From positions 124,001-188,000 of the forward strand of contig JBDOQK010000016.1 of the NCBI GenBank assembly GCA_040437565.1: a stretch of 64,000 nt of DNA. Direction: 5' to 3'. The notes under the pieces were generated by a model that had not been told where the DNA came from, made no database searches, and worked only from the letters and a program-made list of their open reading frames with translations. Position numbers and translations under genes: made by a program. This document shows positions 12,535-14,898 of this stretch, piece by piece. Position 1 is the first letter of the stretch; every line of letters starts with the position of its first letter. Source of the DNA: Albugo candida. Taxonomy: Eukaryota.

Positions 12535-14898
12535 ATGCTCTTGGCGCCACGTAAATGTAGAGCATTCTCTACATGTGCTGCAAGCACTTGGATCCGCCCT
12601 GATAGCTTCGATTACTTGCAACAAACTATTGAAAGTCGGGCATACGAGGCAGCAGTCCAAACTCCATTGACCTATGCTTCTGGGTTGTCCAAGCAATTAG
12701 CATCAAAGTGCAGTTTATTTCTTAAAAGAGAGGTGCCACAAGTGTTTAATCCTGGGACAGCAATCAAATTCTCTAAAATAGGATCTACAAACCACGTTTT
12801 CATTCAATGTGCGTGGCGCACATAATAAAATCGCATCTTTGACAGAAATCCAACGGCGAAATGGAATCGTTGCTTGCGCTGCCGGCAATCATCTGCATGT
12901 ATAACCTCCACGCTTGCCCAATTACCAGGCTGCCTCAAGGAATTTTGATTTAGGGTGTTGCGTATTCGGCAACCAAACTTGGAATTAGTGCACGTATGAT
13001 CGTACCTATCGGGTCTATGAATCATCAAGTATACAAATTCGTATACGAACCGATCAAACTTCTCATTGTGTATATTTTGATAGCTTTCATTTCTACGGAA
13101 CGATCACATCGAAATTGTTGAGCAAGGTCACCACTTTGAAGACGNNNNNNNNNNNNNNNNNNNNNNNNNNNNNNNNNNNNNNNNNNNNNNNNNNNNNNNN
13201 NNNNNNNNNNNNNNNNNNNNNNNNNNNNNNNNNNNNNNNNNNNNTCGTACCTATCGGGTCTATGAATCATCAAGTATACAAATTCGTATACGAACCGATC
13301 AAACTTCTCATTGTGTATATTTTGATAGCTTTCATTTCTACGGAACGATCACATCGAAATTGTTGAGCAAGGTCACCACTTTGAAGACGCGATGGTATGG
13401 TTTGCCTCTTATACGAAGTAGGTCCAGGCGCTGAACACAATTGAAGAAACATGCCATCCAGATCGCTCAAAACGAAGGAAGAGCATTCATACACCCATTC
13501 GATGATCCGATGGTGATTGCCGGGAACGGAACTGTCGGCATGGAAATCCTGCGTCAGGTTGGAAATCTTATCCTGTCTTTGTGTCGCATCCCTGAGATTT
13601 CTCATATAGATGTCAGGCAAATGGCCAGATGCAATTTTCGTTCCAGTCGGAGGAGGAGGCTTAATCGCCGGTATCGCCGCATACGTAAAGCGAATTGCGC
13701 CAAATGTGTCCATCATTGGGGTAGAAGAATCTGGTGCGAATTTGCTGCAAGAATCGTGCAAGGCCAAAAAGCGCGTACGATTCACAAATGTGAATTGCTT
13801 CACAAACGACGTCGCCATGAAGCAAATTGGTCAAGAAAACTTTAGAATTTGTACGGATTTAGTGGATAAAGTGATCACAGTGTCAACCGATGAGATATGT
13901 TCGGCGATCCGAGACGTTTTCGAAGACACCCGTTCGTTGATGGAACCATTAGGTACGCTTTAAGGTGCCCGTCGTGTTCGTTTCTGACATTCTTCAAGGT
14001 GCACTGAGTGTTGCCGGAGTAAAAAAGTATGCTGGAACGAACGGAATCGGGAAAAAATATGTTGCAATCCTAGCTGCAGCGAATATGGACTTTGATCGTT
14101 TGAGATTCATCTCCGAACGGTGAGTTTGCGGTAATTTCTTTGAGACTATCACTTACAAAAAGCTCTCGTTGTACAGATCAGATGATCGAGAAAGAATCAT
14201 GTCCGTTCAGATTCCAGAGCGTAGAGGCGCATTTCAGCAATTATATGACTTGATATGTACGCTTTCATCTAAAGTATATATTCGAATATCTGATGCATTC
14301 TAGTGTATAGTTCCGTATAATGTGACCGAGTTTACGTATCGAATGGTGTCCCAACATGACATTGTTGCTCAGATCCATTTGAGTATACAAACCAAAACAG
14401 AGTCTGAGTTTCATGAGGTATTATCTCGAATCAATTCTCAGAAAGAGATGCAAGCAATCGATCAGAGTCAGAACGAGTTGACGAAAGCACATTTGCGTTA
14501 CTTGGGAACGGGCAGGGCACAAGTTGTACGTTCATCAATACACATTGTCACCAGATCTGATTCCCTCATTTCGTAGCCCTCCTCAGAGCGTGTGTTCCGT
14601 ATGAGCTTCCCTGAACGACCGGGAGCACTTAAAGATTTCCTGGATTGCGTCAGGTGAGTAATCTCAAGTTGTACCGTGTCCGAATGTGATCGATTATCTC
14701 GTACTTAGTCATTCAAATCACAAGTGGAATATAAGCCTTTTTCATTATCGGAATCATGGAGCAGATATCGGTCGAGTTCTCGTAGCGTTCCAAGTGCCTC
14801 CTTTCGAAAACGAAGCTTTTGAGGGTTTTCTGCGGGATTTGAATTTTGCATTTTATGAGGAAACGCAGAATTCAGCCTACCAGCAGTTTCTTTTGTAA
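12535..14898 (+). CDS. Threonine deaminase (IlvA/Ilv1)-like protein with two C-terminal ACT-like regulatory domains; multi-exon; catalytic Lys absent
   Basis: [64 protein letters not shown] and [20 protein letters not shown] motifs. N-terminus resembles a mitochondrial presequence. Interrupted by a gap with duplicated flank (13145-13244). Confidence 0.9.

Follow-up and report, generated by a model that had tools for sequence, protein, structure and literature searches.

A Lys-less paralogue of biosynthetic threonine deaminase in Albugo candida and other oomycetes: a probable isoleucine-binding pseudoenzyme

Threonine deaminase is a classic case of feedback allostery, and its long, biosynthetic form is familiar from yeast Ilv1 and plant OMR1. 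In Escherichia coli IlvA (1TDJ, 9D2Q) and its Pseudomonas aeruginosa counterpart (8Y1J), a fold-type II domain that binds pyridoxal 5′-phosphate (PLP) is joined to two ACT-like regulatory subdomains. The same architecture, at roughly 50% identity, is found in the protein discussed here, which is encoded on the forward strand at positions 12535-14898 of a 64,000-nucleotide stretch of Albugo candida DNA (assembly GCA_040437565.1, contig JBDOQK010000016.1, positions 124,001 to 188,000; hereafter, the window). Where IlvA carries the lysine that forms the Schiff base with PLP, this protein has asparagine. We consider it likely that the gene is the A. candida orthologue of an old, oomycete-wide paralogue of the biosynthetic (IlvA-type, two ACT-like domains) enzyme, kept as a conserved, isoleucine-binding pseudoenzyme.

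Control of an active enzyme by a dead paralogue is a known phenomenon. In trypanosomatids, the prozymes of S-adenosylmethionine decarboxylase and deoxyhypusine synthase are catalytically dead paralogues that activate or otherwise regulate their catalytic sisters. The oomycete protein resembles them in that an apparently disabled paralogue is kept under selection beside an active one in the same genome (here that of Pythium oligandrum) and in that the parent enzyme is an obligate oligomer regulated across subunit interfaces; it differs in belonging to another enzyme family and in keeping a complete effector-binding domain. A natural IlvA with an effector site but no catalysis would show how an enzyme can give rise to a regulatory subunit. 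Staphylococcus aureus IlvA, described as catalytic without an isoleucine site (PMC12224302, cited throughout, like the other two papers used here, for excerpts of its text), offers a second comparison: both proteins are natural IlvAs in which the coupling between catalysis and isoleucine control is broken, but they are opposite cases, as the oomycete protein retains the isoleucine site and lacks the catalytic residues. No paper describing a clade of Lys-less threonine deaminases came up in full-text searches. What these proteins add is a variant of the pseudoenzyme theme rather than a new kind of system.

By similarity, the Lys-less proteins sit well inside the IlvA family. The P. oligandrum orthologue (Poli38472_009662, P0008), which served as reference, matches 8Y1J with E = 5e-143 and E. 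coli 1TDJ with E = 7e-121. The profile for biosynthetic threonine ammonia-lyase, TIGR01124 (cut-off 411.3 bits), is passed by P0008 (575.9), by the truncated public Albugo model (P0001, 451.4) and by P0271, a more distant Lys-less protein (493.7), and both this profile and the source annotations label such proteins threonine dehydratase. Look-ups in a protein atlas likewise returned generic threonine dehydratase clusters only. We nonetheless file the protein as a putative IlvA-derived pseudoenzyme, that is, a family member by score that lacks the defining catalytic feature.

Residues of the active site are numbered here as in E. coli IlvA, through a HMMER alignment of P0008 with chain 9D2Q (chain index minus 19) that was checked against the residues named in PMC12224302. 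Set against long-form IlvA, the oomycete protein is altered at Lys62, Ser86, the Gln of IAGQGT, loop L10, EP(S/A)GA and SGAN. Lys62 has become Asn in Albugo and is Asn or Ser across the oomycetes; Ser86 is Ala (mostly Ala in oomycetes), within AAGNHLH|G at 12878-12898 plus 12954-12956; and the Gln of IAGQGT is Asn (Asn or His in oomycetes). Loop L10 reads NCFTNDVAM in Albugo, against GLFADG(A/V)AV in all 13 canonical rows shown, and more generally N(R/C)FT(E/D/N)(E/D)V(G/A)(I/M) in oomycetes against canonical GLFA(D/E)G(A/V)AV, so that Gly241 of this loop is replaced by Asp in Albugo and by Asp or Glu across the group. EP(S/A)GA is EPLGA in Albugo and EP(T/L/I/S)GA across oomycetes, and Ser315-Gly has become Ala-Ala, turning SGAN into AAAN. 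The glycine-rich phosphate loop, Asn89 and Ser315 are PLP contacts, the last of which we take, from the 1TDJ literature, to be the partner of the pyridine nitrogen. Albugo retains GGGGL, Asn89 and His90; among the oomycete rows shown, GGGGL is invariant and Asn89 is kept in seven of eight. In the docked model of E. coli IlvA, the Ser86 hydroxyl binds the substrate carboxylate and the Gly241 carbonyl the substrate amino group (PMC12224302), and from the substrate-binding set of Ser86, His90, Gly241 and loop L10 only His90 remains in Albugo.

No substitute for the missing residue is apparent: comparison of the Lys-less clade with 89 canonical rows revealed no new conserved lysine at any active-site motif. 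Three new invariant lysine columns do exist, at Albugo residue 313 in the PLP domain and at residues 399 and 461 in the regulatory domain; the first, part of the stretch AGVKKY after the EP(S/A)GA motif, is judged from its sequence context to lie outside the active site. In fold-type II PLP enzymes, removal of the Schiff-base lysine abolishes normal turnover, with lysine-to-neutral mutants losing orders of magnitude of activity. As Lys62 is gone and Ser86, Gly241 and Ser315 are changed as well, threonine deamination is very unlikely: the protein most likely no longer deaminates threonine and should not carry out the EC 4.3.1.19 reaction.

The loss of the lysine is a trait of the whole clade and not of one Albugo gene. 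Every stored protein was aligned to P0008, and the residues in the lysine column were counted. In a first set of 269 rows, 44 of which do not cover the column, lysine occupies it in 204 of the 225 that do, the remainder being 11 Asn, 5 Ser, 2 His, 1 Gly, 1 Asp and 1 Tyr; these non-Lys rows comprise 13 from oomycetes and eight others, and every covering oomycete row (13/13) has Asn or Ser. A second set of 105 further rows gave lysine in 88 of 102 covering rows and Asn in all three new oomycete rows, which come from Pythium insidiosum, Phytophthora kernoviae and Phytophthora cactorum; a third, from a profile search with the Lys-less clade, gave lysine in all 82 covering rows. The replacement thus goes beyond what chance would give. 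Altogether, Asn or Ser stands at the site, together with the other active-site changes, in the window gene and in all 17 oomycete rows that reach it, from 14 named species and three others. The named species are [Pythium] brassicae, Pythium oligandrum and P. insidiosum; Phytophthora infestans, P. lilii, P. fragariaefolia, P. kernoviae and P. cactorum; Peronospora belbahrii, P. effusa, P. destructor and P. matthiolae; a Plasmopara species; and Peronosclerospora sorghi. As all four Peronospora species have Ser, the replacement itself is not conserved. The motifs FSF-N/S-xRGA, AAGNH and AAAN recur in orthologues from Pythium, Phytophthora, Peronospora, Plasmopara and Peronosclerospora, and fragments from Globisporangium ultimum, Nothophytophthora and Hyaloperonospora arabidopsidis stop short of the lysine site.

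The regulatory half presents a different picture. Besides Pfam PALP, the Albugo and P. oligandrum proteins each have two stretches of Thr_dehydrat_C (PF00585). Eleven of the 13 residues that form the isoleucine pocket of E. coli IlvA (as listed in PMC12224302) are identical in Albugo – I345, E347, G350, F352, Y369, A377, I379, W458, N459, I460 and F463 – and the two changes are S351 to Ala, found in several canonical rows too, and L353 to Gln. The allosteric relay F352-L451-F367-L447-V364 is identical at all five positions, P444 is also retained, and two further conserved motifs, FPERPGAL (14607-14630) and a 14-residue stretch at 14725-14766, are in place. With pocket and relay intact, isoleucine binding is likely retained.

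The gene that encodes this protein is intact, correctly spliced and transcribed. Its 11 exons join into 1593 coding bases, or 530 codons, with a single terminal stop and no internal one. The locus is present in 13 sequencing runs, and the contigs of four were compared over 12400-15000. The run records do not list X1-X4 as RNA, and X1 and X2 are treated as such on splicing evidence: all ten GT..AG introns are skipped in a 1834-nucleotide contig of X1 and in contigs of X2, which are thus spliced transcripts. The parts of the gene, all on the forward (+) strand and in window coordinates, are as follows.

12463-12534 (+): 5′ untranslated region, in the record 1 contig of run X1 (which covers 12463-12730); the true transcript start may lie further upstream
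12535-12732 (+): exon 1, with the start codon at 12535 and the first 66 codons; joint 12732|12782
12733-12781 (+): intron 1, 49 nucleotides, GT..AG, absent from the transcript contig
12782-12898 (+): exon 2, carrying the codon-75 motif and ending in ...AAGNHLH
12806-12808 (+): codon 75, AAT (Asn), at the position of the PLP Schiff-base lysine (Lys62 of E. coli IlvA)
12899-12953 (+): intron 2, 55 nucleotides, from the transcript contig
12954-13028 (+): exon 3, 25 residues; joint 13028|13329, in agreement with the public model P0001
13029-13328 (+): intron 3, with a length of 300 nucleotides in the window sequence because of a 100-N gap and a false second copy; true length 55 nucleotides
13329-13394 (+): exon 4, 22 residues, taken from the right-hand copy of a duplicated flank
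13395-13446 (+): intron 4, from transcript contigs
13447-13557 (+): exon 5, beginning KHAIQ; Pfam PALP
13558-13609 (+): intron 5, from transcript contigs
13610-13952 (+): exon 6, with the phosphate loop, GGGGL (13649-13663), and the substrate loop in its remodelled form, NCFTNDVAM (13793-13819)
13953-13998 (+): intron 6, from transcript contigs
13999-14119 (+): exon 7, with AAAN (14073-14084) where SGAN is expected
14120-14176 (+): intron 7, from transcript contigs
14177-14256 (+): exon 8, in which ACT-like domain 1 begins; IPERRGAF (14211-14234) forms part of the isoleucine pocket described in PMC12224302
14257-14310 (+): intron 8, from transcript contigs
14311-14525 (+): exon 9, the remainder of ACT-like domain 1 (NVTEFTYR...AQIHLS)
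14526-14576 (+): intron 9, from transcript contigs
14577-14653 (+): exon 10, with FPERPGAL
14654-14708 (+): intron 10, from transcript contigs
14709-14898 (+): exon 11, with the conserved 14-residue stretch; stop codon at 14896-14898
14899-15000 (+): 3′ untranslated region, in X1 record 1; the transcript contig extends past 15000

Pfam matches fall in exons 2, 5 and 6 for PALP and in exons 9 and 11 for Thr_dehydrat_C, and the N-terminus encoded by exon 1 is basic and rich in Ser, Thr and Ala. The largest exon is 100% identical to the hypothetical protein ABG067_002952 [Albugo candida], the public model already mentioned as P0001; this model, of 411 residues, begins at a Met inside exon 3 and so omits the first 119 residues, the Asn site among them, and it is the 530-codon model, not the shortened one, that the transcript contig backs. 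An exon 3 donor placed after ...YKF was ruled out, the transcript splicing after ...NHQ. Upstream of the start codon, the 5′ leader has another ATG (near 12495), the beginning of a very short frame that could be an upstream open reading frame.

An initial annotation, made from the letters of the window, had proposed intron 12733-12781, the AAT codon directly after it, the altered motifs AAGNHLHG, NCFTNDVAM and AAAN, an intact spliced frame, and conservation of the GGGGL loop and both C-terminal ACT-like domains. All of these features are borne out: the intron and the codon are real in the transcript contigs, AAT is also present in the DNA contig of run X8 (14.7 kilobases), and the motifs, the frame and the two Thr_dehydrat_C stretches are as described. 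That annotation had also raised the questions of whether raw data would read AAA or AAG at the critical codon and whether the gene is transcribed. The X1, X2 and X8 contigs all span 12806-12808 without an alternative letter, AAT being identical in RNA and DNA contigs from two studies, and the ten introns removed in X1 and X2 settle the second question.

The protein is well conserved among oomycetes. Orthologues are 62-75% identical across both domains, Albugo and P. oligandrum 63-64%, and the mean identity of Albugo to the seven other Lys-less oomycete rows is 0.63 in the PLP domain and 0.62 in the regulatory domain. Within the Lys-less oomycete rows as a whole, the means are 0.71 and 0.69, as against 0.50 and 0.49 between these rows and canonical enzymes and 0.61 and 0.52 among the canonical enzymes themselves. 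From the high identity within oomycetes relative to that with canonical proteins, the catalytic domain appears to have changed in a burst on the stem and then to have been held. When near-invariant columns are defined from the 89 canonical rows, which are mostly bacterial, the Lys-less clade retains 112 of the 163 that lie in the PLP domain and 55 of the 69 in the regulatory domain, and many replaced positions are fixed across all 13 rows. On these comparisons, the protein appears to be under purifying selection in both domains, and the pattern of replacement reads as shifted function, not decay.

In a careful tree of 43 rows (LG+C20 with posterior mean site frequencies), 12 Lys-less rows – nine from oomycetes, together with P0271, P0137 and P0183 – form a clade with support 100/97. 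In substitutions per site, the oomycete stem measures 0.74 and the Albugo end branch 0.67, with values of 0.05-0.4 for branches within Pythium and Phytophthora. The further Lys-less rows came from an exhaustive representative search with P0008. Those from outside the named oomycetes (P0125/P0271 and P0137/P0272, with Asn, and P0183, with Ser) all five lie on transcript-sized contigs, and they are more degenerate at the PLP site, the Asn89 position being Arg in P0271 and P0137. P0183, with an end branch of 3.2 and a C-terminus cut short, is the least safely placed.

A canonical paralogue accompanies the Lys-less copy in at least one of these genomes, as the P. oligandrum genome encodes both P0008 and Poli38472_006716 (P0413), a protein of 529 residues on a 1.48-Mb contig that surfaced in a profile search built from the Lys-less clade and reads FSFKIRGA, SAGNH, GLFADGAAV and SGAN. 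The two share length and domain order, and both have a basic, Ser/Thr-rich N-terminus that resembles an organelle presequence; yet P0413 scores 700.6 bits with TIGR01124 against 575.9 for P0008, and their identity is only 0.51 in either domain. In the careful tree, P0413 stands apart from the Lys-less clade and groups, with weak support (84/93), with Lys-bearing Arcella, haptophyte and ochrophyte rows. Within the 64-kilobase window, tblastn with P0413 and with P0008 found a single locus, the Lys-less gene. The clusters of ten N-terminally extended short matches contained no oomycete catalytic paralogue, their members being proteins from plants, fungi and an alga and some unassigned rows. A Phytophthora infestans transcriptome does report an up-regulated 'catabolic threonine dehydratase TdcB', in the part of the paper cited (PMC12117779), which could, but need not, be a distinct active enzyme.

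Oomycetes are not alone in having IlvA-type proteins with a replaced Schiff-base lysine. The residue is His in the diplonemids Diplonema papillatum (DIPPA_30908) and Rhynchopus euleeides, Gly/Ser in Fusarium avenaceum KAF25_004208, Asp in Aspergillus alliaceus KAF5865501 (P0243) and Tyr in the environmental P0264 cluster of seven members; these proteins of other lineages are stored as P0203, P0206, P0224, P0243 and P0264. In a quick tree, the diplonemid, Fusarium and P0264 rows fall outside the oomycete Lys-less clade, Fusarium beside a fungal canonical enzyme; P0243 was placed in no tree. These proteins share the replaced lysine with the oomycete clade but, unlike it, would have arisen separately, and the IlvA family seems to have lost its catalytic lysine on several occasions.

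The initial annotation had seen in this gene a catalytically dead homologue kept under selection and had suggested looking for a Lys-less clade beside a canonical paralogue. The first idea gains computational support from the intact, transcribed gene, the clade-wide changes and the 62-75% identity of the orthologues; the second agrees with the supported clade and with the two P. oligandrum copies. Its scope, a single gene, holds for the Albugo locus but is too narrow as a limit, the trait being clade-wide. The protein probably works, then, as an isoleucine-binding, non-catalytic protein: the paralogue has lost the residues of PLP Schiff-base catalysis while retaining the glycine-rich phosphate loop, the isoleucine pocket with its relay, and the fold, which its sequence identity to solved threonine deaminases is enough to establish.

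As to how such a protein may act, the preferred mechanism is that of a dead subunit in a mixed tetramer with the catalytic paralogue, where, having kept both domains, it would supply or tune feedback control by passing isoleucine control to its catalytic neighbour. In E. coli IlvA, the catalytic domains build the tetramer core, and it is proposed – from structures of the regulatory domain and a docked substrate – that the regulatory domain of one protomer acts, through its loops L20′ and L22′, on the L10 loop of the adjacent protomer (PMC12224302). It is because of this proposed action on a neighbour's substrate loop that we favour the mixed tetramer, a mode of action suggested by analogy, and the conserved surface of the PLP domain and the presence of both paralogues in P. 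oligandrum fit it. More tentatively, and as a possibility to which we give well under even weight, oomycetes and some relatives may long ago have split threonine deaminase into a catalytic subunit and a dead, isoleucine-sensing subunit that sets cross-protomer feedback; in obligate biotrophs such as Albugo, the latter may even have outlived the catalytic copy as a pure sensor.

Other explanations have to be weighed against this one. The protein might be a stand-alone sensor of isoleucine or of branched-chain amino acids, forming a homo-oligomer whose output is something other than threonine deaminase and which could persist without a catalytic paralogue. The retained pocket and relay would serve such a role, and the gene persists in Albugo, Peronospora, Plasmopara, Hyaloperonospora and Peronosclerospora, obligate biotrophs whose metabolism is reduced and species of a type for which large losses of metabolic gene families are reported in the excerpt cited (bioRxiv 10.1101/2020.02.12.941195). 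However, no downstream partner is known, and the surface of the catalytic domain, which matches the regulatory domain in strength of conservation, agrees at least equally well with an IlvA-like tetramer core; the present data do not separate the sensor from the partner model, and we regard the former as rather unlikely. Nor is it probable that the protein is still an enzyme, its remodelled pocket binding PLP, or some other ligand, with no Schiff base and supporting a different or much slower reaction, or using another residue in place of the lysine. Such a reading would account for a PLP domain as conserved within the Lys-less oomycete rows as the regulatory one, for the persistence of GGGGL and, mostly, of Asn89, and for the many replaced positions fixed in all 13 rows, which look like new constraint and not decay. 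Against it stand the variation at the replaced position itself (Asn, but Ser in Peronospora), which suggests no strict role there, the lack of a new conserved lysine at an active-site motif, the accompanying changes at Ser86, Gly241 and Ser315, the loss of Asn89 in outer members of the clade (Arg in P0271 and P0137) and the established drop in activity, by orders of magnitude, of lysine-to-neutral mutants of fold-type II PLP enzymes. Least credible of all, to the point that we see hardly any room for it, is an ordinary decaying pseudogene or an Asn codon produced by sequencing or assembly error. The window is indeed poorly assembled, with 13 gaps of 100 N, 12 of them with a left-flank repeat, it differs at 14872 from all four runs compared, and the public gene model is truncated; but the frame is open over 11 exons, ten introns are removed in transcripts, AAT is the same in the RNA and DNA contigs of two studies, the same replacement is found in 14 named species and three other oomycete rows, and the Albugo protein has kept its identity to that of P. 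oligandrum and, on average, to the seven other oomycete rows. The open frame, the transcripts and the clade-wide replacement refute this reading.

Several points nevertheless weigh against a non-catalytic partner subunit of the kind we favour. The loss of activity is deduced from established knowledge of PLP enzymes. The X8 contig and the window differ by three synonymous, two non-synonymous and four non-coding changes, too few to test selection. The conservation of the PLP domain, on a par with the regulatory domain within oomycetes and with GGGGL and Asn89 mostly retained, could mean that the pocket still serves a ligand, or even an altered chemistry. A canonical paralogue was met in one oomycete only, by chance in the profile search, and the partner model would fail for Albugo if that species has no canonical paralogue. 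'Oomycete-wide' refers to the named species of Albugo, Pythium, Globisporangium, Phytophthora, Nothophytophthora and downy mildews, no Saprolegniales sequence being among the rows, and the outer three Lys-less rows are long-branched, so that their grouping with oomycetes may be partly due to long-branch attraction.

The protein presumably does something that obligate biotrophs need, as it is retained in species that have shed many metabolic genes. If threonine deaminase were indeed split between two subunits, the first committed step of isoleucine synthesis in these crop pathogens would be controlled by a type of subunit undescribed elsewhere; for specialists in amino-acid regulation or oomycete metabolism, the clade is in any case unexpected and directly testable. 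It also bears on metabolic annotation. In an annotation-based survey of 54 stramenopile species, the pathway that makes valine, leucine and isoleucine reached 100% coverage in 40 and was rated among the most complete oomycete pathways (bioRxiv 10.1101/2020.02.12.941195, in the excerpt cited), and such reconstructions may count a non-enzyme as EC 4.3.1.19.

The window itself calls for some caution. The gap inside the gene, 100 N at 13145-13244, which the initial annotation does not mention, has duplicated flanks: 13000-13144 equals 13245-13389 exactly, over 145 bases. As the X8 DNA contig joins 12999 to 13245, skipping 245 nucleotides, both gap and second copy are artefacts of scaffolding, and the gene runs on without interruption. 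The window letter at 14872 is T (TCA, Ser, codon 523), against C (CCA, Pro) in all four runs compared; Pro is also found at this position, in an N-P-A-Y motif, in most other fetched oomycete orthologues, and the window letter is either a strain variant or an assembly error.

The window contains 13 runs of N, each of exactly 100, starting at 13145, 18527, 27475, 32521, 37282, 38699, 41459, 42076, 44372, 46681, 48007, 59966 and 62270. At 12 of the 13, the terminal bases of the left flank (between 18 and at least 400) recur immediately or a short way past the gap. These 12 look like contig overlaps that were never merged, as the DNA contig proves for the one at 13145 only, and genes that span such gaps will show apparently duplicated or interrupted exons. 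Directly downstream of the threonine deaminase paralogue, at 15381-26344 (+), two very long open frames of 1095 and 2691 residues overlap across the gap at 18527-18626; they probably belong to a single giant gene that an artefact of this type has broken in two.

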